A stretch of 64,000 bases of DNA. Source: Patescibacteria group bacterium. Lineage in GTDB: Bacteria > Patescibacteriota > WWE3 > JAMCXX01. Shown here piece by piece: positions 5,789 to 52,147 of the stretch (positions within the stretch are counted from its first letter, which is position 1; each line of letters opens with the position of its first letter). The stretch covers positions 68,217 through 132,216 of the forward strand of contig JAMCXX010000002.1 of assembly GCA_023474425.1 (NCBI GenBank), written 5' to 3'. The notes beneath the pieces were generated by a model. That model worked only from the letters and a program-made list of their open reading frames with translations. It was not told the origin of the DNA and did no database searches. Both the position numbers and the translations under genes were made by a program.

Positions 5789-6415
5789 TTACGATCCCGT
5801 CTCACCTAAATAAATCCAGACCTTAATCCCCAAAGTTCCGTATGAGGTATAGGCTGTATTCCGGGCAAAATCAATATTCGACCTTAGAGTCTGACCGGGA
5901 ATTGAACCGCGGATTATCTTCTCCGTGCGATGAATCGAGGAAGGACCTCCAATGACCCCCGAAACAATAATCTTCACACCCTTGGCGCCCCGCCCCATCA
6001 CCTTTTCCGCCATCTGATGCATAATCCGTTTGACCTGAATACGGCGCAGAATGGAACGGACGATCTCTTCGCCAACAAGCCTTGCCGAGAGCTCCGGATT
6101 TCTAACTTCGCTGACGACAATATCTACTTTCGAACCTACCTTCTTGGTCAAAAATTCCTGGAGTTCCGCCAAACCTGCGCCGCCTCGGCCAATGACCATA
6201 CCCGGACGACCAACACTAACCGTAATCTTAAGGTTAGGCGAACGTTCAATTTTTACATCGGACAAACCTGCCCGTCCAATTTTTTCCGTCAGGGAATCCC
6301 GGATTTTTTTATCTTCAGCCAGATATTTACCCAAATTCTTCTTGGCGTACCATAGCGACCGCCACTCTTTATTAACCCCTAAACGAAAGCCGTAGGGATT
6401 AGCTTTATGACCCAT
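5789..6415 (-). CDS. rpsC: 30S ribosomal protein S3
   Basis: Homology starts at [13 protein letters not shown] (ATG 6415) and includes a KH domain. The tracked 36-codon extension overlaps rplV. Confidence 0.93.
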   Translation of the reverse strand: MGHKANPYGFRLGVNKEWRSLWYAKKNLGKYLAEDKKIRDSLTEKIGRAGLSDVKIERSPNLKITVSVGRPGMVIGRGGAGLAELQEFLTKKVGSKVDIVVSEVRNPELSARLVGEEIVRSILRRIQVKRIMHQMAEKVMGRGAKGVKIIVSGVIGGPSSIHRTEKIIRGSIPGQTLRSNIDFARNTAYTSYGTLGIKVWIYLGETGS

Positions 6416-23490: not shown

Positions 23491-24045
23491 ATGACCGTTT
23501 TGACTCATGCCGTCATTGGAGGCCTTGCGGGGTCTTTAGCCCCCAACCCGTTTCTTTCCGCGCTATTCGGCTTCCTTTCCCATTTCTTAAGCGACATTAT
23601 TCCCCACAACGACTATCTTTATTTTTACTACGGCAAACCCAAAAACCCCTACACTTCAGTAATTAACCGGATAATCCTGGGTCTCACTGCTCTTTATCTT
23701 CTGGCAATTATTTTGAGCCGGCCGGCGAGTTCTTCCCTGCCGATTGTTCTCGGATCTTTTTTCGGCATTCTGCCGGACATTCTCACCGGTCTAGGCCAGA
23801 CATTTTTTAAGCGGGAAACCGCCTTTGACAAGTTTCACGGACTTACCCATTGGCGCCTAGCCCTAGGCGAGTTTCTCCACAACAAGCTTTCCCGCTCGGA
23901 AAAAATTGACCGCCGTGATTTTATTGTGGCTAGATTCGATCAGCTCAAGAATTCCCGTTGGGCCAGGCTCGGATGGACGGCGGAAACAGCTTTCGAATTA
24001 ATTGTCCTTTTTTATTGCTTAAGACTTTTGGGGTTCGGTATTTAG
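23491..24045 (+). CDS. Membrane-bound metal-dependent hydrolase, YdjM/DUF457-like
   Basis: 184 aa with several hydrophobic helices and THAVIGGLAG...HFLSDIIPHND. The 3' end overlaps ruvX convergently. Confidence 0.5.
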   Translation: MTVLTHAVIGGLAGSLAPNPFLSALFGFLSHFLSDIIPHNDYLYFYYGKPKNPYTSVINRIILGLTALYLLAIILSRPASSSLPIVLGSFFGILPDILTGLGQTFFKRETAFDKFHGLTHWRLALGEFLHNKLSRSEKIDRRDFIVARFDQLKNSRWARLGWTAETAFELIVLFYCLRLLGFGI

Positions 24046-24471
24046 ACTGGCTTTAGACGAGGCGAGATAGTTTTCCAAAATTAGACAGGCGGAAAGGCTC
24101 CCTTCCCAGCCTCGCCGTTTCGACCGGGGTCGAATAAAGTAGGCAGGGTCCTCCCGTGCCGCCCGGGAAGTCAGACTCTCATCGGCAAAAAAGATTTTAA
24201 TCTTCTTATTTTTGGCCAAAATATTTTCCGAAAGCTTTTTTATGGAACGGGACAAAGTTCCCTCCCGCCCATTCGGCGGACGCGGATGACCAAAGACGAT
24301 TGTTGCGGCATCGTACAAGCGGCAGACGTTTAAGAGTTCGTTAGCAATCCGACTTGTGGAGTTAAAGGATAAACTCGGCAGCGGCGAGATAAGAAAGGAA
24401 CCATCCGAATTATTTGAGAGCAGGGCCAGGCCTACCGTCTTAAAGCCGAAATCTACTCCCAAAATATTCAT
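24019..24471 (-). CDS. ruvX: Putative pre-16S rRNA nuclease / Holliday-junction resolvase-like YqgF
   Basis: 150 aa with MNILGVDFGFKTVGLALL, the RNase H-like YqgF N-terminus. Conserved alaS...ruvX...mltG neighbourhood. Confidence 0.8.
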   Translation of the reverse strand: MNILGVDFGFKTVGLALLSNNSDGSFLISPLPSLSFNSTSRIANELLNVCRLYDAATIVFGHPRPPNGREGTLSRSIKKLSENILAKNKKIKIFFADESLTSRAAREDPAYFIRPRSKRRGWEGSLSACLILENYLASSKASLNTEPQKS

Positions 24472-25967
24472 TTCCGAATAACAACTACCTCCAAATTTTT
24501 GGCCCTAAAAGGCATAAACGGCAACAAATTTAAACCGGAGCGGCTCAAACTATAAGAACTGATTTTTCCCAGCGAGGTAAGAATTTCGTTGGCCCGGGAA
24601 ACTCTTTGAGAAATAAGCTCCCGCTTTATTTCGTTTTGGTCAATTTTTGGTACAACAAACCCGGTGCCGCGGGCCGTTACGGTTAGGACCCCACCGGCGT
24701 ATTGCGAGGACTGAACCTGAACATTTTGGTCTTTGCCAAAAAGCTCGTAACCATCCGGCACATAATTACTCAATAGTTGACCAACTAGAGAGTTAAGGTC
24801 ATTCTGGGAGAAAGCCAAAACCGAAGCCTTAAGATCCAGATTCAAGGTCAGACTATCCGCCTGGTCACCGGGATTCTTATCATAATTTTTACTAACGACC
24901 TCGTAATTAATACTGTCCTCGTTAATGGTCTGACCGCTAATCACCTTATCCAAAAGCGTTTTTTTAAGACCGGACTGCAGGGCTGTCTCCAAGGAATTAA
25001 GCAGGCCGGCCGCGTCGGTGGCGGTTACCACTTTAACCTCCTGCCGGCTGCCGCCGCCAAAACTATCCTGATTGCTGGCCACAAAATCGCTGGTGGCCTT
25101 GGTACCCACCGAAAAAATTGACCCTGAAGACACGTTGTATTCATCGCCGAGAGAACCGGCAACAACATCCACCCCGGCCGTACCCGGATCGTAGCCGCTT
25201 TGAGCGGCGGGATCGGCGGTTCGGGCCGGAACGGTGACATCGCTTTTGGTAATAAAGTTCAAATTATCGGCGTTAATTTGGCTCTTGCTCACCGTTGTTC
25301 CGGCCGGAAAAGTAACGTCGGCGGTTGTCTTGTTATAAATAGTCACCCGCCCCACGGCCTTATTACCAATCTCCTTCTGACCGCTCGAGGGGGTACTCTC
25401 CGATTGCTTGGCCTCGGCGGTAATTTCAAAAGCGGGGACGGACGGCGGGTCCTTGGTAACGGTGGTAATATTTGGCGAGGCCTCAATGTCAATTACTTTC
25501 ACCAAAGGCTCCGAGTCAACGGTCAGAGTTACTTTGGCGTGGGGAGAAAAATAAAAAACAAAAACGGCTCCGGCGGTTATAAGGATTATGACCAAAAGAA
25601 GAAGCAGTGTCGGTCCGAAAGAAAGCCGCCGAAAGTTAAAATGGGGACGGGGTAGAGAGGACAAGAATCCAAATAACCTAAATTTTTCGGCTGAAACCGT
25701 GTGTGGCAAATTACTGGAATCAACCGGAGACCGAACTTGGCCCCCGTTTAAGAGTTCCTCCAGATAAGCATAATTAGAATCGTCAAAAAGAAAACGCAGG
25801 TTCTTGCCCAACTGCCCCGCTCGGGCTTTAAGAATCTTAAAAGCGAGAAGATTTTCCAAAAGAGGGCTGCTACCCGAAACTACCAACTCGATTTCGGTAT
25901 CTTCAACTTTCTTTATCCTCTCGATTGTCTGCCACAATCCGTCGGATTCAGAACTTATCCGGTACAT
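24468..25967 (-). CDS. Hypothetical single-pass membrane protein (about 115-aa cytoplasmic N-domain, TM helix, about 360-aa Thr/Ser/Val-rich external domain)
   Basis: 499 aa with TM segment GPTLLLLLVIILITAGAVFVFYF. Overlaps the upstream ftsA-like gene by 20 nt and ruvX by 4 nt. I cannot assign a family by eye. Confidence 0.6.
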   Translation of the reverse strand: MYRISSESDGLWQTIERIKKVEDTEIELVVSGSSPLLENLLAFKILKARAGQLGKNLRFLFDDSNYAYLEELLNGGQVRSPVDSSNLPHTVSAEKFRLFGFLSSLPRPHFNFRRLSFGPTLLLLLVIILITAGAVFVFYFSPHAKVTLTVDSEPLVKVIDIEASPNITTVTKDPPSVPAFEITAEAKQSESTPSSGQKEIGNKAVGRVTIYNKTTADVTFPAGTTVSKSQINADNLNFITKSDVTVPARTADPAAQSGYDPGTAGVDVVAGSLGDEYNVSSGSIFSVGTKATSDFVASNQDSFGGGSRQEVKVVTATDAAGLLNSLETALQSGLKKTLLDKVISGQTINEDSINYEVVSKNYDKNPGDQADSLTLNLDLKASVLAFSQNDLNSLVGQLLSNYVPDGYELFGKDQNVQVQSSQYAGGVLTVTARGTGFVVPKIDQNEIKRELISQRVSRANEILTSLGKISSYSLSRSGLNLLPFMPFRAKNLEVVVIRK

Positions 25968-27132
25968 AACTTTTTTGAAAAACTTCCACCGCCGACAAAA
26001 GCGGCAAGAAACTTAAATGATTATTATCGGCACCGGTATAATTAATTTCCGGAGTCAGTCCTTTATCCAAACCGTAAACATCTAAAAAGTTAAGAAAGGA
26101 GGTAGAGCTGCCCTTCACAAATTCACCTAGGGCCTCACGGATATTCTCGGGTTTTATTCCCCGTCCGAAGAAATAGACGGGAATCCGGGCAAACTTTGAG
26201 CCTTGGGTTATTTCGGTGAGAGACTGATCAAGACTATACGTCCAGAGTTTAAAAAAATCTGCCGCTTCCGATGGCGAAAACTCCCCCCTCCTCTTCCTCT
26301 CTTCGGCGTCTTCCGTGGTCAAACCTAATTTTTGGCAAAGATTTATGGTTAAATCCCGACCGCCAAGAGGGATAGTTCTCTCGCCCACAATTTTCCCCAA
26401 AGAAACTAAACAGACATCGGTTACTTGAAATCCAACGTCAACTAAAACTGCCGAAAAGTTTCCCCGAGTCTTCTTAATTAAATCTAGAAGACCCACCGTC
26501 TGGTCAAAAACCAGAAGGTTCTTTTTGTTAAGACCGCGGCTGATTTTTTCCAAGAGCTTGCGGGTGGGACTTGAGGCAAAGGAGGCCAAAACCGAAACCT
26601 TAAAAGTCGGCTCAATTACCGCAGCCAAGGACTCCAGGCCTATTCCGTCCGATGATTCAAAGCTAACGACCCGCTCGTAAAAAGATTCCACTTCGGGCGA
26701 CGGGTCGCCGGAGATTCGGGAAAATTCCTTTTTAATTTCCCCGGCAACTTGGCGTTTAATCTCCTTCTCTATTTTGTCTTTCTCGCCTCTGCCAAGCCTC
26801 CCGGCCGTGGGTCTTTTAACTTCCAAATCCACTGTGACCGACTTTACGAACTCTCCGGAAAGCGGGAATACCAAACCCGGCGGCGTAAAGCCGCAGGCAA
26901 GGGAAGCCTTCCTTAAAGCCCTTCCTGCCGTTTCCTGAAAATCGTTTAAGTCCGAAACCAGACCGGAAAGAATCGTCCCGTTTTTAAATAATTCTTCACC
27001 AAAACCGAGTAAAGTTGGGGTAAAGGTTGTTAAATCAACAATGGCGGCCTTAACCGAAGAGGTGCCCAGGTCCAAAAGAGCGATGCTTTGAGGTTTAGAT
27101 TTCGCCGAAAAGTTTTTAAGAAAATTCAGCAT
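25948..27132 (-). CDS. Actin-like ATPase of the FtsA/PilM family
   Basis: 394 aa with IALLDLGTSSVKAAIV (phosphate-1 motif) and IVGERTIPLGGRDLTINLCQKLGLTTEDAEERK, typical of FtsA/PilM. Confidence 0.65.
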   Translation of the reverse strand: MLNFLKNFSAKSKPQSIALLDLGTSSVKAAIVDLTTFTPTLLGFGEELFKNGTILSGLVSDLNDFQETAGRALRKASLACGFTPPGLVFPLSGEFVKSVTVDLEVKRPTAGRLGRGEKDKIEKEIKRQVAGEIKKEFSRISGDPSPEVESFYERVVSFESSDGIGLESLAAVIEPTFKVSVLASFASSPTRKLLEKISRGLNKKNLLVFDQTVGLLDLIKKTRGNFSAVLVDVGFQVTDVCLVSLGKIVGERTIPLGGRDLTINLCQKLGLTTEDAEERKRRGEFSPSEAADFFKLWTYSLDQSLTEITQGSKFARIPVYFFGRGIKPENIREALGEFVKGSSTSFLNFLDVYGLDKGLTPEINYTGADNNHLSFLPLLSAVEVFQKSYVPDKF

Positions 27133-27160
27133 AGGCAGACAGTGAAAATTAACCTAATTA

Positions 27161-27257
27161 CTAATTTCTAACCGCTACAATTAACCATAACGACAACGAC
27201 TCAATTCCTAACTTGTAAATTGGTGCTTTTTTAGAAATTAGGTCAATTAGAAATTTA
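27161..27257 (+). repeat. 11-mer CTAATTTCTAA in inverted and direct copies in the alaS / ftsA-like spacer
   Basis: CTAATTTCTAA (27161-27171), perfect inverted copy TTAGAAATTAG (27231-27241), and a 10/11 copy TTAGAAATTTA (27247-27257). Confidence 0.6.
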
Positions 27258-27263
27258 TATATT

Positions 27264-29090
27264 TTAACCTTCAACCTCGCCCCGGATGCGTCTAACGCCG
27301 GACGAGACGGCTTCCTCTTTAACAATTTTAAACCTTTTAAGCTCTCCGGTGTAATGGGCATGAGGGCCGCCGCAAAGCTCTTTAGAAAAATATTCGCCGG
27401 TGGTTTTTTCGGGACCGATTCTATACAGAGTCACTCTGTCCACGCTCTGGTACTTCTCTTCAAAGAGTGCTTCGGCGCCCTGGCTTCTGGCTTCCTCGAA
27501 AGAAGTGGTCAAGCATTCCACGGGAAGATTTTGGGCAATAGCGCGATTGACTAATTCCTCCACTTTCGCAAGTTCTACATCCGTCAGCTTACGTGAAAAA
27601 TTAAAGTCGTGGCGGAAAGACTTTTCGCTTATCTTTTGCCCCATCTGGTGGACTTCTAATCCTAGAATTTTCTTGAGAGCTGCGTTTAGAAGATGGGCGG
27701 CCGTGTGGGCGGTTTTAATTTTCTCCGGATCATACGCAGTTGCAGCGCGGGCGTCCCTCGACCTGTCCTTCTGCCTGGCCAAATTTTCCTCGAAGGCGGC
27801 CACGTCGACGTCAAACCCCTTGGCCTTGGCCAGGTCAACTGTTAAGTCAACGGGAAAACCGAGCGAGTCGTACAACCTGAAGGCAAAATCACCACCAACC
27901 TTTTTATTAGGATTTTTTCGTAAGTACTTGTCGAGTTCGGCCATCCCTCTTTTTAAAACGTCTCCGAACTTTTTCTCCTCATCTTCCAAAAGTTCGTGAA
28001 TGACGCTGTGAGTCTGGGCCAGATTTGGATAAGCTTCCTGAAACTCATTAACCACGGTTTCAGAAAGTTCGGAAACAAAGTAACCTTCAATTCCCAAAAG
28101 ATGACCGTGGGCAATAGCTCGGCGGATTAAGCGGCGCATAACATAACCTGCCTCTACATTGCTCGGGACTAAACCATCACTGGCCAAAAACGTAGACGCC
28201 CGCACGTGGTCGGCAATAATACGGACCGAACGTTCGTTAACGCGTTCGGCGGTAATCTTGGCTAGGGATTCTATTTCGGAGATTAAGGGCTTAAATAGAT
28301 CTGTATCGTAGGCGCTTTTGCCGCCCTGCAAAACCATGGCGAACCGCTCTAAACCCGCACCGGCGTCCACACTCTTTATGGGTAGGCTTTCCAAACTGCC
28401 ATCGGCTTTGCGCTCATAAGTCATAAAAACGCCGGCGTTCCAAATCTCTAGAAACCTGCCGCAGTCGTGAGTAGGCCCGCAGTCCGCCCGACCGCAGCCA
28501 AATTCCGGACCCAAGTCATAAAGAACATCGGTATTGGGACCGCAGGGGCCTTGTGGGCCGGAAAACCAAAAAGAATCTTTAAGGGGTAAACCAAGAATCC
28601 GTTCCGATCTGATACCCAAATCCAGCCAAATTTGACGGGTCTCGTTGTCTGGCGGCACACTGGACATACCACTATCGCCGCCAAAAACGCCAAAATACAG
28701 CTTGCCTTGGTCTATACCAAACTCCCTTAATAACTCAAGGGCAAATTCACATGCTTCCTTCTTAAAGTACGGGCCCCTGCCTTCCTTACCAAAAGGTTTA
28801 CCAATTTGACCAATACTCCAATTGCCCAGCATTTCAAAAAAAGTCAGATGGTGAATGTCGCCTACCTCGTCTATATCGTCGGTGCGTACGCATTTTTGAA
28901 CATCGGTTAGCCTTAACGAGGGAGGATTCTTTTGGCCCAAAAAATATGGTTTTAGGGGGGCCATACCGGAGTTGGTCAAAAGAAGTGTGGGGTCATACTC
29001 GGGAATGAGTGAAGCCGAGGGCAATCTTAAGTGCCCCCGCTTTTCAAAAAATTCAAGGAATTTATTTCTGATTTCGTTGTGTGACCACAT
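27264..29090 (-). CDS. alaS: Alanine--tRNA ligase, short form (608 aa; no C-terminal C-Ala/DHHA1 region)
   Basis: N-terminus MWSHNEIRNKFLEFFEKRGHLRLPSASLIP...LLTNSGMAPLKPYF. Editing-domain motifs HTAAHLL...CGGPH lie near the C-terminus. Confidence 0.92.
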   Translation of the reverse strand: MWSHNEIRNKFLEFFEKRGHLRLPSASLIPEYDPTLLLTNSGMAPLKPYFLGQKNPPSLRLTDVQKCVRTDDIDEVGDIHHLTFFEMLGNWSIGQIGKPFGKEGRGPYFKKEACEFALELLREFGIDQGKLYFGVFGGDSGMSSVPPDNETRQIWLDLGIRSERILGLPLKDSFWFSGPQGPCGPNTDVLYDLGPEFGCGRADCGPTHDCGRFLEIWNAGVFMTYERKADGSLESLPIKSVDAGAGLERFAMVLQGGKSAYDTDLFKPLISEIESLAKITAERVNERSVRIIADHVRASTFLASDGLVPSNVEAGYVMRRLIRRAIAHGHLLGIEGYFVSELSETVVNEFQEAYPNLAQTHSVIHELLEDEEKKFGDVLKRGMAELDKYLRKNPNKKVGGDFAFRLYDSLGFPVDLTVDLAKAKGFDVDVAAFEENLARQKDRSRDARAATAYDPEKIKTAHTAAHLLNAALKKILGLEVHQMGQKISEKSFRHDFNFSRKLTDVELAKVEELVNRAIAQNLPVECLTTSFEEARSQGAEALFEEKYQSVDRVTLYRIGPEKTTGEYFSKELCGGPHAHYTGELKRFKIVKEEAVSSGVRRIRGEVEG

Positions 29091-29096
29091 GGTTTA

Positions 29097-29125
29097 ATGA
29101 TAGGTAAAAAGGGGCGGGTTGACAA
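29097..29125 (-). promoter_or_regulatory. Sigma70-like promoter of alaS; predicts a leaderless mRNA
   Basis: On the minus strand, TTGTCA (29125-29120), 17 nt, TATCAT (29102-29097), then 6 nt (TAAACC) to the ATG at 29090. Confidence 0.55.
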
Positions 29126-29158
29126 TGCTTACGACCCCCCCCGCTGGTTTCGGAAGGT

Positions 29159-29164
29159 TATAAT
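29159..29164 (+). promoter_or_regulatory. -10-like TATAAT box upstream of the tRNA 5' fragment
   Basis: TATAAT lies 21 nt upstream of GGCGCGG (29186). No convincing -35 box. Confidence 0.35.
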
Positions 29165-29185
29165 ATCTGGTATCCTATTAGAAAC

Positions 29186-29202
29186 GGCGCGGTGGTGAAG
29201 TG
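29186..29202 (+). other. tRNA 5' fragment (acceptor 5' strand GGCGCGG plus TGGTGAAGTG) with no local 3' half
   Basis: 15 of its first 16 nt match the 5' end of the adjacent tRNA-Cys (GGCGCAGTGGTGAAGAG). It is perfectly complementary (7/7) to CCGCGCC at 29710-29716. No T-arm follows within 300 nt. Confidence 0.6.
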
Positions 29203-29232
29203 TCTCGCGGAGCGAGATCAGGCTTCGCCTGA
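29203..29232 (+). repeat. Double-hairpin module, copy A
   Basis: TCTCGC-GGA-GCGAGA followed directly by TCAGGC-TTC-GCCTGA. Lies upstream of the GIY-YIG ORF. Confidence 0.75.
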
Positions 29233-29248
29233 GAAACTACTAGAAAAG

Positions 29249-29506
29249 ATGTACTACGTCTACATACTTAAGAGTCTAAAGAACGGCGATGTTTATGTTG
29301 GTTACAGTGATGATTTAAAAAGAAGGTTTGACCAACATAATTCTGGTTCTGTTAGGTCAACACAATTTAACAGACCTTGGGATTTGCCCTATTACGAAGC
29401 ATATAAAGACAAACATGACGCAACAAAAAGGGAAAGGCAACTTAAAAATCACGCGGCTAAAAACGATTTGAAAAAACAGTTAGAATACAGTTTAGGAAAA
29501 ATTTAA
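29249..29506 (+). CDS. Small GIY-YIG nuclease-domain protein (85 aa; catalytic domain only)
   Basis: MYYVYILKSLKNGDVYVGYSDDLKRRFDQHNSG matches the GIY...YIG...R...H/N motif order. Visibly AT-rich relative to its flanks. The tracked GTG start at 29192 would read through the tRNA fragment and hairpins. Confidence 0.8.
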   Translation: MYYVYILKSLKNGDVYVGYSDDLKRRFDQHNSGSVRSTQFNRPWDLPYYEAYKDKHDATKRERQLKNHAAKNDLKKQLEYSLGKI

Positions 29507-29516
29507 TAATGAGTTT

Positions 29517-29548
29517 GGTCTCGCAGAGCGAGACCTTGCTCCGCAAGG
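29517..29548 (+). repeat. Double-hairpin module, copy B
   Basis: GGTCTCGC-AGA-GCGAGACC sharing CC with CCTTGC-TCC-GCAAGG. Starts 11 nt after the GIY-YIG stop, and its last GG is the first GG of tRNA-Cys. Confidence 0.75.
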
Positions 29549-29621
29549 CGCAGTGGTGAAGAGGTAACACGGCTGTCTGCAAAACAGCTACGCAGCGGTT
29601 CGATTCCGCTCTGCGCCTCCA
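29547..29621 (+). tRNA. tRNA-Cys (GCA), CCA encoded
   Basis: Hand fold: acceptor GGCGCAG/CTGCGCC, D arm GTG-AAGAGGTAA-CAC, anticodon arm GCTGT-CTGCAAA-ACAGC, T arm AGCGG-TTCGATT-CCGCT, discriminator U73, then CCA. Confidence 0.9.
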
Positions 29622-29629
29622 GATTTAAA

Positions 29630-29720
29630 GAGGTAGCGTGGTGACCTGTCTCGCGGAGCGAGATCTGGCCCCGCCAGACAAAACCTCGATGCGAGGGTTC
29701 GATTCCCTCCCGCGCCTCCA
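29630..29720 (+). other. tRNA-like element: degenerate 5' part, double hairpin, then intact T-arm, acceptor 3' strand and CCA
   Basis: T arm GAGGG-TTCGATT-CCCTC (29693-29709), CCGCGCC (29710-29716), T, CCA. The local 5' candidate GGTAGCG (29632-29638) has 3 mismatches. I could not draw a canonical D or anticodon arm. Confidence 0.55.
29649..29678 (+). repeat. Double-hairpin module, copy C
   Basis: TCTCGC-GGA-GCGAGA followed directly by TCTGGC-CCC-GCCAGA. Embedded in the tRNA-like element. Confidence 0.75.
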
Positions 29721-29805
29721 CATAAAGACCCTAGTGAGCTTCCGAACGAGTTTAGAATTTTATAGTGTCCCACGAAGCTTTAGCGAAGTAGGACAGATTT
29801 GATTT

Positions 29806-31500
29806 TCACTTCTTATTTCCCAAACAGGATTTAACAAAGGATATAAAGAGTGGGTGCGGGTTTAATGGACGGGATTTATATTCCGGATGAAATTGCGTGC
29901 CGACAAAAAATGGATGAACCGATTTGGGAAGCTCCAGTGCTTCCACCAATTTTCCGTCCGGAGATAAGGCACTAAAGACTAAACCCGCAGCTTCCAATTT
30001 TTGACGAAACTCATTGTTGACCTCATACCGATGCCTGTGCCTCTCTTCTATTTGGACATCCTTCTGACCTTCCGCCTTTGCCGAGGCTACGGCGGGCGGG
30101 CCTTCCAACCTATACGCCTCCTCGATGACCGATCCTCCTTTGAGGATCGCCGGCCATGAGCCGAGTCTAATTGTTCCGCCGTATTGATGAGCTTCCAGAT
30201 ATTTCTTCTGGTCAGGCATAATATGAATGACCGGATAAGGAGTTTTTGCGTCTGCTTCTTCGGAATTAGCACCGGTGAGACCACAAACATTCCGGGCGTA
30301 TTCAATAACAGCCATCTGCATACCAAAGCAAAGCCCCAGGTACGGGATTTTATTTTCCCTGGCAAACTTAATCGCCTCAATTTTCCCTTCGGTACCGCGA
30401 GAGCCCCAACCTTGGGGAATAACTACGCCATCAAATTTTAATTTGCTAACGCCCTCGGCGGTAAGTTCCGTGGAGTCCACGGGAACAACATTAACCTTTA
30501 CTTTATTAAACGAGGCGGCATGTTTTAGCGCTTCTAGAACAGAAACGTAGACATCTTTATGGCTGCTCTGGCCGTGGGTCACGTACTTCCCAACCAGGGC
30601 AATGTTTACTTCTTTTTTGGCTGTTTCCAAACCGGAAATAAAACTTTTCCACTCTTTAAAATCTGGCTCTTTTTCGGGGAGGCCGAATTTTGAAAGAATT
30701 TTTCTAGTGAGTCCGTTTTTATTAAAATTTACGGGGAGGTTATAAATTAAATCCAAATCAGGGTCGTCAAAAACGGCATCATCGTCCAAAAAACAGCGCT
30801 TGGCCAAGGTTTCACGGCGGGGTTCATCCAAGGGAACTTCGTCGCGGGTAATTAAAATGTCGGGGTTAATGCCGGCCTGACGCAAATTGGCCACGGCGTG
30901 TTGGGTGGGCTTGGTTTTAAGCTCACCCACATTTCTTAAAAACGGAACATAGGAAACCAGCACATAAAGGGCTTGCCTTTCGCGCCCCATTTCCCTAGCG
31001 GCATAAAGAAAGGGCAGATTTTCTATGTCGCCGGTGGTTCCGCCCACCTCCACCACTACAAAATCGTAACCATTTTCGCCCTCGTAAAAGCGTCTTTTAA
31101 TTTCGTTGGGGACGTCGGGAATCATCTCCACATCCCGGCCCTCATATTTAAACGAACGTTCGTTGGCAATAATGGTGCTAAAAATTTTGCCGGAAGTCAG
31201 ATTGTTTTCTTTGGAAAAGCTTTGGTTAAGAAACCGTTCGTAGTTGCCCAAATCCTGATCTATTTCGCCACCGTCGTCGGTCACAAAAACCTCGCCGTGT
31301 TCGGCCGGACGCATGGTTCCGGCATCAACGTTCAAATAGGGGTCAATTTTAAAAAGGTTAACTTTGTACCCGCAGGATTTAAGAAGAAGCCCAATGGAAG
31401 CAGTCACAATGCCTTTGCCGAGGCCGGATAAAACTCCGCCAACGACGAAAATGTATTTGGGAAATTTTTTAGAAACAGCATTCGACCGCGGCACAATCAA
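29806..31500 (-). CDS. pyrG: CTP synthase
   Basis: 564 aa with KYIFVVGGVLSGLGKG, plus GLCFGMQ and HRHRYEVN from the glutaminase domain. The start may be GTG at 31494 rather than TTG at 31500. Confidence 0.95.
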   Translation of the reverse strand: MIVPRSNAVSKKFPKYIFVVGGVLSGLGKGIVTASIGLLLKSCGYKVNLFKIDPYLNVDAGTMRPAEHGEVFVTDDGGEIDQDLGNYERFLNQSFSKENNLTSGKIFSTIIANERSFKYEGRDVEMIPDVPNEIKRRFYEGENGYDFVVVEVGGTTGDIENLPFLYAAREMGRERQALYVLVSYVPFLRNVGELKTKPTQHAVANLRQAGINPDILITRDEVPLDEPRRETLAKRCFLDDDAVFDDPDLDLIYNLPVNFNKNGLTRKILSKFGLPEKEPDFKEWKSFISGLETAKKEVNIALVGKYVTHGQSSHKDVYVSVLEALKHAASFNKVKVNVVPVDSTELTAEGVSKLKFDGVVIPQGWGSRGTEGKIEAIKFARENKIPYLGLCFGMQMAVIEYARNVCGLTGANSEEADAKTPYPVIHIMPDQKKYLEAHQYGGTIRLGSWPAILKGGSVIEEAYRLEGPPAVASAKAEGQKDVQIEERHRHRYEVNNEFRQKLEAAGLVFSALSPDGKLVEALELPKSVHPFFVGTQFHPEYKSRPLNPHPLFISFVKSCLGNKK

Positions 31501-31528
31501 TTCTTAAATAAAGGTCGCTTTTAGTCAA
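31500..31528 (-). promoter_or_regulatory. Sigma70-like promoter abutting the pyrG start
   Basis: On the minus strand, TTGACT (31528-31523), 17 nt, AAGAAT (31505-31500), then GTG at 31494 five nt downstream. Confidence 0.4.
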
Positions 31529-31652
31529 TATGGGGGTTACTTGTGAATTCTGCTTCAGATTTTCACATCCGGAAATGTTTGAGAACCCGCGGTACTATCT
31601 GGAAAAGACGTTATTCATTGTGCCAACTCGTTAAGAGAATCCGTATCAAGCT

Positions 31653-31792
31653 ACATAAACCTCGTGCGACCCGCCTGCCAAAGCTAATTTTAGAAAATTT
31701 ATCTAACCATAGGAGAAGAACAATTAACCAGGTCTAATTTGGTTTGGGGTTTGGGCATAGCGGGCAGGTCGCACTATAAAAATGTAGTTAGG
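31653..31792 (+). repeat. Conserved structured intergenic element, copy 1 (core 31664-31774)
   Basis: Aligns by eye at roughly 85-90% identity with 55745-55888. The ends CGTGCGACCCGCCTGCC and GGCATAGCGGGCAGGTCGCAC are mutually complementary. Confidence 0.7.
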
Positions 31793-31847
31793 ACTAATGT
31801 CATTCTGGCCGCAGTCCAGAATCATTTATTGGCTAATAAGATGGGGT

Positions 31848-32444
31848 TTAAAGAAATTTGAAAGTGGAGATAATGCTGTTTTCTATTTGGTTAATGTCCT
31901 CAGCCCTTGTTTGAACGAATATTTCGGCCATAAGAGCACGCTTAACACTACGAATGTTTATTAGCCAGCAATACCCAGCTTGACAATACTCTCGGTGCGC
32001 CTCAGCCGATTCTCCGTTGATAATAAGGGAATTTCTTTTGAAGACTCCAGCGGACTTCATCATTTTCGCCGTGGAAGATGTACTAAAGCTATCAACGATT
32101 TGCTTTGGGGTTAGGCCTAAATATCTGTAGACGGTGAAATCGATAAAATACAAGTTTGGGCTTGGATCCGCTATCGCAATTTGCACCACGTCCTTAGTGT
32201 TGATTTGGGCAAAATTATTAAATGTTGGGTCACTTCGCTTTTCCAGCTTCCAGGAAGAGGGATATTTAAATGTAAAACCATAGTCGTTGTTTATGTATGT
32301 TTTCCAATTCGCGGTTTCATCGGTTAGTGTAGAAGCTGACGGAGTACTAAGGGGGCTTTGAGTTGGTGTGGGCGTCGCGGCTGGAGTTTGATTGGGGACG
32401 GGAACCTCGGTTTTGGGAGTGTAGGGGCTACGAGGCCTAACCAT
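31848..32444 (-). CDS. Hypothetical protein with a Pro/Thr-rich N-terminal linker and a beta-rich domain; no signal peptide or TM found
   Basis: 198 aa with lower GC than its surroundings (about 37-43% in two hand-counted 60-nt lines). In-frame stop 4 codons upstream of the ATG. Confidence 0.5.
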   Translation of the reverse strand: MVRPRSPYTPKTEVPVPNQTPAATPTPTQSPLSTPSASTLTDETANWKTYINNDYGFTFKYPSSWKLEKRSDPTFNNFAQINTKDVVQIAIADPSPNLYFIDFTVYRYLGLTPKQIVDSFSTSSTAKMMKSAGVFKRNSLIINGESAEAHREYCQAGYCWLINIRSVKRALMAEIFVQTRAEDINQIENSIISTFKFL

Positions 32445-32500
32445 CCATGATTTTTACCTACGCTATAGCGTAAGAAAAAAGCACAATTATTTTTTACGGC

Positions 32501-32896
32501 TCAATGGCTCGAACTCGAATAACTCACCTTCTGCCTGAACACCCTATACCAACCGAAGATAACGGGTAAGACGAGAGTTAAAATGTAGTACAAATAGACA
32601 TCCAATTTATAATAGCCGTTCGTGGGCTTTAGGAGTTTGACCAGGAATAGATAATCAAAGACAACGGCAATCAAGGTCCAAGCAATCCCCAGTATTAAAT
32701 AGTATCGGATTGATACCCCTTTTATTTTCTTAAACAAAACCCAAAGGGTCACCGCGATACCAAAGGGCATAATGGCCCAGCCAAGAAGTTCTTTGGGGAC
32801 AAACACAAAGAATACAAAACCCAAAATGTAGCCAAAAAGCCAAAGTCCAATACCCCAACCCAGGGAATCTTTTAGAAACCTGGCGGCACCAACCAT
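32501..32896 (-). CDS. Hypothetical integral membrane protein (about 4 TM helices)
   Basis: 131 aa, strongly hydrophobic (GIGLWLFGYILGFVFFVFV, AIMPFGIAVTLWVLF, and others). Confidence 0.55.
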   Translation of the reverse strand: MVGAARFLKDSLGWGIGLWLFGYILGFVFFVFVPKELLGWAIMPFGIAVTLWVLFKKIKGVSIRYYLILGIAWTLIAVVFDYLFLVKLLKPTNGYYKLDVYLYYILTLVLPVIFGWYRVFRQKVSYSSSSH

Positions 32897-48644: not shown

Positions 48645-51200
48645 ATGGTACCCTATTCTGCCTTTACCCGCCCAAACGAGAATGCTTTGGAACCCGGCAC
48701 GGAAATAGAGAAAAAACCGGAAAATCAAACGCCTTCGGAGCCGCTCAAAATTCTGCCCCGCGAAAACGAATCTCAAAAAGCTGTGAACAAAGAACCCGAA
48801 AGGGTTGTCCACCTTAAAGCTCGCGAAATTGAAACTCCTCAAATCAGCCAAAAAGAAAGTCAGATCGGTAACAATTCCCTACCGCTTTCGGAAACTGAAA
48901 TTAAGGAATACACCCGTTTTCCCATTTATACCGAGGTCCGCTGGCTGGCCGAGTGGAGCCTTAGGCAAATCAAAAAACTTAATCCTTTTTCTTCGCGCGG
49001 CGAAGTCGCTTCTTTAAATATGGTTTTTTTCGAGGTCACCACCCCACGTCAAAACGAAATTGAAATTCCGGCCGCCGAGCAGATGTTTGCCAATCTCGCC
49101 GGCCTCTACCGCGGCGGAATTTTTCACTTTTTAAAAAAACAGGTTTTCCTAAGCCTTGAAATCGTGGCCGATCCGGGAGAAATCCGTTTTGTGGTCGGCT
49201 GTCCAAAAGAGGTTAAAACCTTTGTGGAGAAACAGATTCACGGCTCCTACCCCGCGGCCGAAATTGTGGAAATTCCCGAATACAATCCTTTTAAAAAAGA
49301 GGGTTACGTTTCCCTAGCCGAGCTTGTTACCACAGGTCCCGCTTACTACTCCATTCAAACTTACAAGGAAGTGGAGGAGAAAATTGACCCCCTCAACAAC
49401 ATTACCTCGAGCCTTTCTAAACTTAACCCCAACGAGTCGGCTGTCATTCAAATAGCCATCTCCCCGGCCGGGCCGCATTGGTCGCAAAAAGGCCAGCGGG
49501 TGGTTTTTAAGTCCAAGAATGTGGACCCCGAGAAAAAACAATACGTCCTAGACGAACGGATTGTTGAAGGAATTAACAAAAAAATTGCCAAGCTGGGATT
49601 TTTTGCCGTCGTCCGCATTGTCTCCAGCTCGCCCGACCAAAATTCGGCCAAAATTCAGGCGGAAAACATTGCCCGCTCATTTGAGCAGTTTTCTGTGCCC
49701 CACCTGGCCTCTTTTCGCTCCAAGCCGATTTGGGTCAAAAAGTGGTTCATGCATGACTTTCTCTATCGCCACACGCCGCGTTTCCGGCACAACACCGTAC
49801 TTTCCACTGAAGAGTTAGCCACCATTTTTCACTTTCCGGGGAAACTTACTCAAACACCCAACATTAAGTGGATGCTTGCCAAAACCGGAGCACCGCCGCA
49901 AAACCTTCCGGCCGAAGGTTTGTATATAGGCATTTCCGCCTACCGCGGCGTACAAAAAGCGATTCATCTTAAAACCGACGACCGTCGACGCCATCTCTAT
50001 GTCATTGGGCAAACCGGCACGGGTAAATCGGAATTCTTAAAAATGCTGGCCCGCCAGGACATAAACGAAGGCCGTGGTTTGGCCTTTATTGACCCTCACG
50101 GCGATGCCGTGGAAGACTTACTCAAAACCATTCCCGAAAACCGGGTTGACGACGTCATTTATTTTGACCCCGGTGACACGCAGCGCCCACCGGGCCTAAA
50201 CATACTGGAAGCGGAAAGTGAAGAAGGAAAACATTTGGCCATTAACTCCTTTATTGCCCTCCTGTACAAACTCTACGACCCCAACCGCACCGGCATTATG
50301 GGGCCCCAGCTGGAGCGGGCCATCCGCAACGTAATGCTTACGGCCATGAGCGAGCCGGGAAATACTATGGTAGAAGTTTTGCGCCTCTTAACCGACCCGG
50401 CCTTTGCCAACTCCAAACTGCCGCTAATTGCCGACCCGTTAGTTAAGCGTTATTGGACCGATGAACTGGCCCGAACTTCCGATTTTCACAAGAGCGAAAA
50501 GCTGGGCTACTTTGTTTCCAAGTTCGACCGCTTTGTGACGGAAAAATTAATGAGAAACATTATTGGCCAGTCCACCTCCTCGTTTAACTTAAGGGGTGTA
50601 ATGGACCAAAAGAAAATTCTTCTAATCAATCTTTCCAAAGGCAAAATCGGCGAAGAAAATTCCAACTTTTTGGGGCTCATTCTCGTTCCCCGAATTCTCA
50701 TCGCCGCCATGAGCCGGGTGGACCAAAAGGAGGAAGAGCGGCAGGATTTTTACCTTTATGTGGACGAGTTCCAGAATTTTGCTACGCCGGACTTCGTGCA
50801 GATTCTCTCCGAAGCCCGCAAGTATCGCTTGAGCCTGCAGGTGGCTAATCAGTTTATTGGCCAGCTTGACGACAAAATTAAAGACGCCGTTTTTGGCAAT
50901 GTGGGCACAACCGTGGCCTTTAGGGTGGGTGCCGACGACGCCGAATATTTGGAGCACCAATTTGAGCCTTTATTTAACAAGTCTGATCTTTTGAACAGCC
51001 CCACCGGCCAGGCCTACATGCGCCTGCTTATTGACGGTCAGCCGTCAATACCTTTCTCCATGAAAGTTGATTGGAAAGTTATTTCGGCGGTGAGGAAGAA
51101 TTTAGAACTGGCGGAAAAAATTAAGGAAATCTCCCGCCAACGATATGGCCGAGATGCCAAACTCGTTGACGAGGAAATTAGGATTAGAAGCGGACTTTAA
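48645..51200 (+). CDS. TraD/VirD4 (type IV coupling protein)-like P-loop ATPase with an unassigned 400-aa N-terminal region and no TM helices
   Basis: 851 aa with Walker [26 protein letters not shown], Walker [11 protein letters not shown], and [19 protein letters not shown]...[13 protein letters not shown], typical of TraD/TraG/VirD4 C-terminal halves. Confidence 0.65.
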
Positions 51201-52147
51201 GTTATATCTCGTAACTCTTCCAAAAGCTCTCTTTCGCGCTTGCCGGGCTTTTTGGGGACGGCGATAATTATGCGCACATAGTGGTCACCGGTCCCACGAT
51301 TGGATTTAACACCCTTGCCTTTGATTCTAAAAACCGTGCCGCTCAAGGTACCGCTCGGAACCGAGAGCTTGACTGGACTCTGCACGGTCTCGACTTCTAT
51401 TTTGTCACCCAAAACCGCCTGCGGATAAGAAATTAAAACTTCCGAGAAAACGTCATCGCCCTCACGGTTAAACCGGGGATGTGTCCCTACCCGCAAACTA
51501 ATGTAAAGGTCCCCGTTTGGTAAATTCCGGCCATCGCGGGTGCGGCCCGGCTCACCTTCTCCGGCAAATCTAATCTTTGTTCCCGTACGGGCGCCTTGGG
51601 GAATTTTTACATGCAGGGTTTTGCCGTCAACGTTCACCGTTTTCTCCGAGCCGCTAACAGCTTCCATAAAATCTACATCCATTACATAACTTAAGTCGCG
51701 GCCCTTGTTCGGCTCCCGGCGTCCACCAAAACCTCTAAAACCGAATACGGATTCAAAAATGTCGAAGGGGTCGGCAAAGTCCCCTCCTTCAGAGAAACCC
51801 TCAAATCCATCAGCTGACGGACCGCCGGAAGAATAGGTATAGGTAAAGGGCCCCCACTGACCGGTTTGAGCGCCGCCAAAGGGGTTAAAGCCAGATTGTC
51901 CCGCGGAGCGGGATCCCGCCTCGCGGGAAAAGGCCGCGTGGCCAAAGCGGTCGTAGGCCGCCTTTTTCTGCGGGTCAGAAAGAATTTGGTAGGCTTCGTT
52001 AATTTCCTTAAAACGCGCCTCGGCTCCGGGGCTTTTGTCCACATCGGGATGGTGCTTGCGGGCCAATTCCCGGTAGGCCTTTTTAATTTCGTCGACTGCA
52101 GCGCCTTTTTTTAAACCCAATATTTCGTAATAGTCTCTTATTGGCAT
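51197..52147 (-). CDS. J-domain co-chaperone, CbpA-like (DnaJ lacking the CxxCxGxG zinc-finger domain)
   Basis: 316 aa with [31 protein letters not shown], a G/F-rich region and two C-terminal beta domains. Contains no cysteines. Confidence 0.85.

Follow-up and report, generated by a model that had tools for sequence, protein, structure and literature searches.

Layout of the locus

We analyzed a tRNA locus of a Patescibacteria group bacterium that lies at positions 29186-29720 of a 64,000-nt stretch of contig JAMCXX010000002.1 (hereafter the window, to which all positions refer unless another locus is named). The locus opens with the 5′ end of a tRNA and closes with the 3′ end of a tRNA, and the 476 nt between them (29203-29678) hold an open reading frame (ORF) for an 85-aa GIY-YIG protein, a foreign, intact tRNA-Cys and three copies of a 30-nt element made of two palindromes, which we call the doublet. 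The outer acceptor strands, GGCGCGG (29186-29192) and CCGCGCC (29710-29716), form 7/7 pairs; the local 5′ candidate for the same 3′ end, GGTAGCG (29632-29638), gives three mismatches and one G-U wobble with CCGCGCC. Ahead of the 3′ acceptor strand stands the T arm GAGGG-TTCGATT-CCCTC (29693-29709), and behind it U73 and CCA. The 5′ part is duplicated inside the locus, with 84% identity between 29192-29236 and 29638-29682. The pairing, the poor local candidate and the duplication had all been noticed in a first-pass annotation made from the letters alone, and its coordinates for both acceptor strands, the TATAAT box, the ORF, the tRNA-Cys, the T arm, U73 and CCA proved correct. The two hairpins that it described are also present, but they are in fact one 30-nt doublet, repeated three times in the locus. 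One Logan contig (SRR10252151) covers window positions 23764-32523 at 99.989% and a second (SRR10267473) covers 27231-29708 at 100%; because these two independent assemblies agree, the locus is not an assembly artefact.

The outer ends are the halves of a resident tRNA-Cys gene

Contigs of relatives, fetched through a search with the neighboring alanyl-tRNA synthetase (AlaRS; 77-78% identity), supplied the uninterrupted allele that the first-pass annotation had proposed to look for between alaS and pyrG. In three of them (L211, L213 and L214; L numbers denote the loci compared) the pyrG-alaS interval contains a single intact tRNA-Cys, GGCGCGGTGGCGAAGTGGAAACGCTGGGGTCTGCAAAACCTCGATGCGAGGGTTCGATTCCCTCCCGCGCCTCCA, and is free of the inserted cassette, so that this conserved site is polymorphic for its presence and absence. 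In L213 the intact gene spans 2907-2981. The first 17 nt of the relatives' gene match the 5′ end in the window at 16/17 positions, and GAAAC, which follows doublet A, corresponds to positions 18-22 of the intact gene in L213 and L211. Its last 42 nt match the 3′ end at 42/42 positions (blastn, 43/43 including the following base), a stretch comprising the second anticodon base, the 3′ strand of the anticodon stem, the variable loop, the T arm, the acceptor 3′ strand, U73 and CCA. Homology continues into the 28 nt ahead of the 5′ end, which correspond to the upstream region of the relatives' tRNA-Cys (88.9% identity to L211 over the 45 nt of 29158-29202). Resident positions 1-22 and 34-75 are present, and positions 23-33 (3′ strand of the D stem and 5′ strand of the anticodon stem) are missing. 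The identity to the relatives' intact gene (16/17 and 42/42) is decisive: on this comparison, the "orphan" ends at 29186-29202 and 29679-29720 both derive from the resident tRNA-Cys gene, of which they are the two halves; they are called the 5′ and 3′ relics below. Their perfect pairing is inherited complementarity, as they once supplied the opposite strands of a single acceptor stem.

The TATAAT box at 29159 lies 21 nt ahead of the tRNA start. It was not called in a consensus promoter scan and has no -35 match; the sole basis for assigning it as a promoter is its conservation with the relatives. The resident upstream region now probably drives the transcript of the entire cassette.

The inner tRNA-Cys is the only intact tRNA that ARAGORN and Rfam find in the 64-kb window, and it is presumed to be the working copy. 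It is 74.7% identical to the relatives' resident tRNA-Cys by blastn (80% in a global alignment), with paired changes in all four stems, and it matches the resident gene at 31/42 positions over the stretch where the 3′ relic matches at 42/42. Its acceptor stem, GGCGCAG/CTGCGCC, is common to L206. Judged by these differences, the inner tRNA-Cys is foreign and part of the cassette. The first-pass annotation had rightly called it flawless but had not noticed that it belongs to the inserted unit.

Between the inner tRNA-Cys and doublet C stands a tRNA-like segment of 17 nt (29632-29648). It is identical to the 5′ relic at 11/17 positions and can also be aligned to resident positions 23-33 with two gaps; compared with the D-loop and anticodon-stem positions of several tRNA-Cys genes, its fit equals that to positions 1-17 and is no better. 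It may be a decayed copy of the 5′ part, and because it is far more diverged than the adjoining 42/42 stretch, it probably arrived with the cassette.

Table 1 Features of the interrupted tRNA-Cys locus, in window coordinates
Feature	Position	Strand	Basis or remark
Upstream region of the resident tRNA-Cys, including TATAAT at 29159-29164	29158-29185	+	aligned with L211
Resident tRNA-Cys positions 1-17, the 5′ relic (5′ strand of the acceptor stem, first part of the D arm), GGCGCGGTGGTGAAGTG	29186-29202	+	16/17 against relatives
Palindrome doublet A (TCTCGC-GGA-GCGAGA + TCAGGC-TTC-GCCTGA)	29203-29232	+	30-nt insertion between resident positions 17 and 18
Resident tRNA-Cys positions 18-22 (GAAAC), last resident bases ahead of the cassette leader	29233-29237	+	identical to L213/L211
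Gene for the 85-aa stand-alone GIY-YIG nuclease domain (UPF0213-like), N-terminus MYYVY	29249-29506	+	Pfam PF01541
Palindrome doublet B, adjoining the inner tRNA; its terminal GG is G1 G2 of the inner tRNA	29519-29548	+	
Intact inner tRNA-Cys(GCA), cassette-borne	29547-29621	+	ARAGORN; Rfam tRNA, 63.2 bits
tRNA-like 17-nt segment GGTAGCGTGGTGACCTG, of ambiguous origin, directly before doublet C	29632-29648	+	
Palindrome doublet C (TCTCGC-GGA-GCGAGA + TCTGGC-CCC-GCCAGA)	29649-29678	+	inserted in the anticodon, after G and before C (CTG|CAAAAC)
3′ relic of the resident tRNA-Cys	29679-29720	+	42/42 against relatives

Compared with L211 and L213, the tRNA locus (29091-29805) is inverted relative to alaS and pyrG. 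The relatives' tRNA-Cys has the same orientation as both genes, and the alaS start of L213 follows 19 nt after its end. The alaS gene of the window has its own promoter-like site on the minus strand (TTGTCA-17-TATCAT, 29125-29097).

The nuclease is a conserved stand-alone GIY-YIG domain

The 85-aa protein matches Pfam PF01541 at 66.8 bits (cut-off 22.6; E 2e-18), and its nearest solved structures, PDB 1zg2 and 1ywl, are stand-alone UPF0213 proteins, in agreement with the earlier description of the protein as a catalytic domain only. Residues Y5, Y16-x-G18, R26, H30 and E62, which are catalytic positions, are invariant in 28 homologues, and the pairwise ratio of nonsynonymous to synonymous substitution rates (dN/dS) in the family is about 0.1; the protein is therefore maintained by purifying selection, and presumably it is active. 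Homologues of the ORF belong to Patescibacteria. The NCBIfam model "group I intron endonuclease" reaches a score of 24 against its cut-off of 56, over residues 4-34 only.

The public gene call for this ORF, P0001 (104 aa), begins at GTG 29192 and runs through the tRNA relic and doublet A. This longer version is probably an annotation error, because the homologues all begin with MYYVY at an ATG equivalent to 29249. An exact-sequence look-up of the 85-aa protein gave no match, and the 104-aa version was used instead.

The palindrome doublet inserts as an exact 30-nt unit

Each doublet consists of two abutting 15-nt palindromes with a 6-bp stem and a 3-nt loop, following the pattern TCNNSC-NNN-GSNNGA twice. 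Strict doublets number four in the window, three of them in the locus, against none in 100 dinucleotide shuffles, and about 30 more GC-rich doublets of the same pattern occur in related loci. Exactly 30 nt are inserted at resident positions 17|18 (TG|GAAAC) and 33|34 (TG|CAAAAC), and the tRNA-Cys relics of L128, L129, L130, L132, L134, L141 and L208 also have a doublet at the insertion point of doublet C. No target-site duplication was seen at the doublets. Their stems vary between loci with complementarity kept, and a covariation count over 28 doublets found double-sided stem changes, in a set that was picked for complementarity and with a signal that fits an RNA hairpin and a DNA palindrome equally.

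Doublets also occur outside tRNA genes. The fourth strict doublet of the window, TCCCGC-GGA-GCGGGA + TCCCGC-CTC-GCGGGA (51899-51928), lies in frame in the minus-strand dnaJ gene (51197-52147), where it encodes 10 residues of the DnaJ G/F linker. Comparison with relatives gave no clean case of presence and absence at this position, as their linkers are similar in length, some with SREAG or SRGAG, and the dnaJ doublet may be old or recurrent. In L047 (Levyibacteriota, JBDRBE010000001.1) an in-frame doublet at 5810-5839 lies in a gene for a TatD-family hydrolase; its ten extra residues, VLQSRISLRE, fall in a gap of the alignment with T. maritima TatD (PDB 1j6o), and its flanks, CG|CAAAAC, resemble the tRNA-Cys anticodon loop. 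Further in-frame solo doublets were found in L184 (786-815, in a tsaD-like gene with an SGGHTQ motif) and L111 (195-224, in a 2.2-kb ORF), and an uncertain case lies in a long open frame of L035 (6530-6559). Several of the doublets in protein genes share the reading frame that gives ...ISLRE. The available sequence around the solo doublets of L035, L047 and L111 (7-8 kb per locus) has no GIY-YIG gene.

Taken together, the doublet appears to behave as an independent miniature insertion module that prefers N|CAA-like sites, including tRNA loop sequences. It co-occurs strongly with the GIY-YIG gene, but in loci that were chosen for that gene, and from this co-occurrence we infer a link between doublet and nuclease. 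A scan of genome contigs with the hp1 pattern TCTCGCRRAGCGAGAYC gave 120 matches, nearly all of them chance matches in GC-rich genomes (for example, in sigma-factor coding sequence); the relevant ones were only L032, L035, L047, L063 and L111. Three Eubacteriales contigs from metagenome-assembled genomes (L061, L084 and L098) hold the core TCTCGCRAAGCGAGA in arrays of alternating hairpins (...CATCAT-TCTCGCGAAGCGAGA-TCATCATTTCGCCCGCAGGGCGAA...), which look like a different repeat family of Firmicutes.

The arrangement recurs at tRNA genes

We compared 80 metagenome loci (79 distinct ORFs) picked purely by protein similarity, together with further loci obtained through exact protein look-up. An intact tRNA on the same strand starts within -40 to +80 nt of the ORF stop in 30 of the 79 distinct ORFs, and for 15 further ORFs a same-strand tRNA ends within 200 nt upstream. 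The tRNA beside the ORF is tRNA-Cys in the closest relatives and elsewhere one for Leu, Ile, Val, Asp, Glu, Trp, Ala or Ser. More than half of the 30 loci (16/30) carry an upstream copy of the first 12 nt of the tRNA with at most two mismatches, for which the chance expectation is about 0.8% per locus, and several more of them have recognizable, more diverged 5′ fragments upstream. The order that recurs in Patescibacteria is a tRNA fragment, a doublet, the GIY-YIG ORF and an intact tRNA. Typically the upstream fragment is interrupted by the doublet and resumes for 5-25 tRNA bases before the ORF, as in L004, L032, L126, L128, L134, L136, L141, L184 and L208. The unit of ORF, doublet and tRNA-Cys is found in L003, L206 and L207. 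In L001 the arrangement is mirrored: an intact tRNA precedes the ORF, and a T-loop and 3′ end that have been displaced come after it, together with a doublet.

Three of these loci repeat the complete geometry seen in the window. In two, L130 and L132, an outer 5′ GGTCGCG forms 7/7 pairs with an outer 3′ CGCGACC, and the tRNA-Cys enclosed between them differs in its acceptor stem; in L131 the same outer tRNA type is present as an intact gene. In the third, L129, the outer halves give 6/7 pairs and one wobble. Elsewhere the relics are more decayed: the T loop of the 3′ relic holds an extra hairpin in L129 and L132, the outer ends of L141 are unpaired, and L208 has no 3′ relic. This range of decay is as expected for remnants that would be non-functional.

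Some close homologues of the 85-aa ORF lie within 16S rRNA genes: those of L138, L179 and L181 are close to the 5′ end of the gene, that of L182 is deeper inside it, and that of L203 is close to the 3′ end. These ORFs are flanked by inverted repeats of 10-13 nt (for example, CCCCGCCCTTT...AAAGGGCGGGG), and no group I or group II intron model matches at these loci. Other homologues flanked by inverted repeats (for example, CCCTGTGCAATA...TATTGCACAGGG), in L145, L188, L198 and L199, appear by eye to interrupt genes for a four-helix-bundle-like ("23S rRNA intervening sequence") protein. In L165 (~1830-2100), the ORF is followed downstream by an intact tRNA and then by a tandem array of three near-identical pseudo-tRNA-Cys units, which lack the first 7 nt and have the hairpin GTGCCGATTCGGCAC in place of the 5′ side of the anticodon stem.

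Origin of the split gene

The data show a resident tRNA gene that is split around an intact copy of foreign origin, a layout that recurs at many tRNA genes and an ORF under purifying selection. We consider it likely that the resident tRNA-Cys was invaded by a selfish cassette consisting of the GIY-YIG gene, the doublets and a complete tRNA-Cys of its own, which would move through repair triggered by the nuclease. Of the three readings offered in the first-pass annotation, the splitting of a tRNA by a mobile GIY-YIG cassette is thereby supported, through the uninterrupted allele of the relatives and the recurrent architecture. In the proposed mechanism, the nuclease would cut intact tRNA genes in loop-coding DNA at TG|CA-like sites. 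Repair of the break from a copy that bears the cassette, with homology arms provided by the tRNA relics, would copy the cassette in; this process would be homing, as for free-standing homing endonuclease genes. The doublets would occupy the former cut sites and render the relics uncuttable. A joint transcript of relic, ORF and tRNA would arise from the promoter of the resident tRNA, and the inner tRNA would be freed from this mRNA by RNase P and 3′ processing. The cell would remain viable because the tRNA-Cys of the cassette substitutes for the broken resident gene.

Several points weigh against this explanation. Both the cleavage activity and the target site of the GIY-YIG protein are putative, and all 85 aa make up the GIY-YIG domain, with no DNA-binding domain of the kind found in I-TevI and Seg proteins. 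In its anticodon loop the inner tRNA does not differ in sequence from the presumed target, so its immunity is unexplained unless recognition reaches the stems, which do differ. The ambiguous origin of 29632-29648 is a further difficulty, and the inversion of the tRNA locus calls for at least one rearrangement besides simple homing, so that its history was not one clean event. Finally, the 42/42 conservation of the 3′ relic could reflect selection on the relic and not a recent insertion. An undecayed 3′ relic can be explained by recent insertion or by selection at the level of the element for intact homology arms, and neither would need an RNA function.

Among the alternatives, the one that fares best, although we regard it as unlikely, keeps the same cassette and changes how it moves. 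The cassette, bearing a tRNA segment and a doublet, would exist as a circular or excised copy and recombine into a tRNA gene or into the palindromes, by Campbell-type or site-specific integration, and the nuclease would have another role, such as resolving hairpins or cruciforms. The layout of many loci (L126, L136, L184 and L208), in which tRNA positions 1 to x, a doublet, positions x+1 to x+n and the ORF precede a complete tRNA, is what a single crossover of a circle carrying a tRNA 5′ segment is expected to leave. The palindromes resemble the core sites of recombination, and inverted repeats can promote inversion, by which the locus differs from its relatives. Against this stand the lack of a recombinase gene in the cassette, the very short homology segments (10-55 nt) and the fact that no circular or free form was seen. 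In addition, relics flank the insert on either side in the window and in L130, a better fit to two-armed repair of a double-strand break.

Far less probable is a local tandem duplication of tRNA-Cys followed by decay of the outer copies, with an unrelated small ORF between them and no mobile element. Tandem tRNA genes are common and the 5′ part is duplicated in the locus (29192-29236 and 29638-29682), but the empty-site allele largely refutes such a history: relatives hold a single tRNA-Cys at this site and the outer ends are its halves, for which reason the earlier suggestion of two decaying paralogues is not supported either. Nor would duplication account for an inner tRNA that is 75-80% identical to the resident gene when the 3′ relic is 100% identical, for doublets that are exact 30-nt insertions, or for an ORF family that, across many lineages, takes the same position beside nine tRNA species and is found in 16S rRNA genes as well.

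We give equally little credence to a functional pairing of the outer ends, in which the 5′ and 3′ relics would form an acceptor/T-arm minihelix with U73-CCA in the primary transcript. The result could be a tRNA-like RNA that is split, or a clamp that encloses the nuclease mRNA and resembles transfer-messenger RNA (tmRNA); it would be recognized by RNase P, the CCA-adding enzyme or cysteinyl-tRNA synthetase (CysRS), or would shield the mRNA ends. The 7/7 acceptor stem, the flawless T arm and the encoded U73 and CCA speak for such a structure. So does the minimum free energy fold of the 535 nt, which joins the first 7 nt to the 3′ acceptor strand and doublet A to doublet C (z = -3.9), as do the undecayed 3′ relic (42/42) and the pairing outer halves retained in L130 and L132. 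The 7-mer complementarity alone is weak evidence, because CCGCGCC occurs eight times on the plus strand of the 64-kb window, and common ancestry accounts fully for the pairing. Without positions 23-33 a cloverleaf is impossible, and compared with the intact allele the two parts do not hold all tRNA positions between them, as those of a split or intron-containing tRNA would. The inner tRNA would be excised from such a transcript. In other loci the relics occur in all stages of decay, including the T-loop hairpin of L129 and L132, the unpaired ends of L141 and the missing 3′ relic of L208. For these reasons the earlier proposal of an RNA joined across the insert is not upheld.

Model searches point the same way, as the Rfam tRNA and tmRNA models and ARAGORN find no more than the T arm in the relics. 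Neither Rfam (at gathering thresholds or at E<=10) nor ARAGORN finds a tRNA at 29626-29720, where only T-arm fragments score (16-18 bits) and the local 5′ strand does not form a 7-bp acceptor stem (GGTAGCG against CCGCGCC); the covariance-model check proposed in the first-pass annotation thus left its observation standing. For tmRNA there is an 18-nt T-arm match only, whose 16.4 bits fall short of the gathering score of 47; ARAGORN predicts no tmRNA, and pair 3:70 is C-G. Covariance models of introns, whether of group I or of group II, have no match in the window (gathering), in 28900-30000 (E<=10) or in 20 related loci, as had been anticipated for group I introns. Permissive Rfam matches to mascRNA, tmRNA and permuted tmRNA in 28900-30000 were rejected as T-arm fragments far under the gathering scores. 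A tRNA-Sec or an allo-tRNA-like long-arm tRNA was rejected for the 89-nt chimera of 5′ relic and 3′ fragment, because its hairpin loops have 3 nt, an anticodon loop is absent and the intact allele is a normal tRNA-Cys. The least probable version of all is that the relics pair across ~500 nt with help from the doublets and hold the nuclease mRNA in a tRNA-like clamp that RNase P and CCA-end enzymes would process and that CysRS could possibly charge; if true, bacteria would have in this clamp their own equivalent of split tRNAs or of the tmRNA architecture.

Relation to known systems

The closest documented analogue of the proposed selfish cassette is the mobile endonuclease ORFs (mORFs) of fungal mitochondria, which give rise to hybrid genes. 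These bring in a foreign gene terminus, and the displaced native terminus stays identical to that of sister species; cases include atp6 of Allomyces macrogynus and atp6, atp9, cox2 and nad3 of Glomus, with a GIY-YIG enzyme in atp9 (PMC3630166). Common to both are a free-standing endonuclease ORF in an essential gene, a foreign replacement part and a native part left unexpressed downstream. The same combination of foreign and native parts is found in the window, where the inner tRNA-Cys is foreign (75-80%) and the native sequence persists in the 3′ relic (42/42) and the 5′ relic (16/17). In contrast to the fungal cases, the window belongs to a bacterial chromosome, the genes targeted are those of tRNAs, related copies being present in 16S rRNA genes, and the cassettes replace a whole tRNA or a tRNA half instead of a protein C-terminus. 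The enzyme of the window is also just 85 aa long, and the relics occur on both sides of the insert.

SegB of phage T4 is a GIY-YIG homing enzyme located among tRNA genes, which cleaves a related genome in its tRNA gene region and takes flanking markers along when it is copied in (PMC2330249). The Seg and Mob enzymes differ in that they are intergenic and belong to phages, Seg proteins having 200-250 aa and a DNA-binding domain, and in that no tRNA split or duplication and no palindrome doublets accompany them. In Patescibacteria, tRNA group I introns occur at 35/36 in the anticodon loop and are missed by standard tRNA finders, and the survey that describes them has no mention of GIY-YIG, hairpins or duplication (PMC13011429). 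These tRNAs share with our locus the phylum and the interrupted anticodon loop, but the window has no intron signal, and its broken gene is replaced by a second gene and not spliced.

Short GC-rich hairpin elements include the Rickettsia palindromic elements, which lie in frame in protein genes, and REP/REPIN. Such elements fold as one or two hairpins and insert without an obvious target duplication, and the doublet resembles them in being short, GC-rich, hairpin-forming and multicopy. Similar in form are the double-hairpin elements of Allomyces mitochondria and the GC-rich palindromes that flank tRNA genes in Neurospora mitochondria, both cited in PMC2800124 (its refs 12 and 17). The doublet differs from all of these in being exactly 30 bp long, in lying in bacterial tRNA relics beside a GIY-YIG gene and in having no sequence homology to them.

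Searches of an incompletely covered literature on GIY-YIG with tRNA in Patescibacteria, on UPF0213 and on in-frame palindromic elements in Patescibacteria gave no earlier description of the cassette. The locus is one example of a widespread, apparently undescribed form that the "endonuclease ORF + replacement gene part" strategy takes in bacteria, here directed at tRNA genes and accompanied by a 30-bp palindromic mini-element. If this is correct, Patescibacteria harbor a family of selfish cassettes, driven by a minimal GIY-YIG protein of 85 aa, that break essential tRNA genes and compensate with a replacement tRNA or tRNA half, with related forms inside 16S rRNA genes. Such cassettes would account for tRNA fragments and "orphan" tRNA ends in these genomes and would make tRNA genes horizontally exchangeable as passengers of nuclease genes. 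They would extend to bacterial RNA genes a strategy documented for protein genes of fungal mitochondria, and would give the large uncharacterized group of UPF0213-like stand-alone GIY-YIG proteins a testable role. The 30-bp doublet, which is also found in frame in protein genes, is a candidate for a new miniature mobile element, and the nuclease is a candidate for its partner enzyme.

Other insertions between pyrG and alaS

The pyrG-alaS interval of other relatives contains a PIN-domain gene with a small upstream partner (carrying a ribbon-helix-helix (RHH) domain in L210) and a 313-aa ORF; the regions concerned are 1164-1795 in L210 and 1352-2992 in L211. The presence of the PIN gene and the 313-aa ORF marks the interval as an insertion hot spot.

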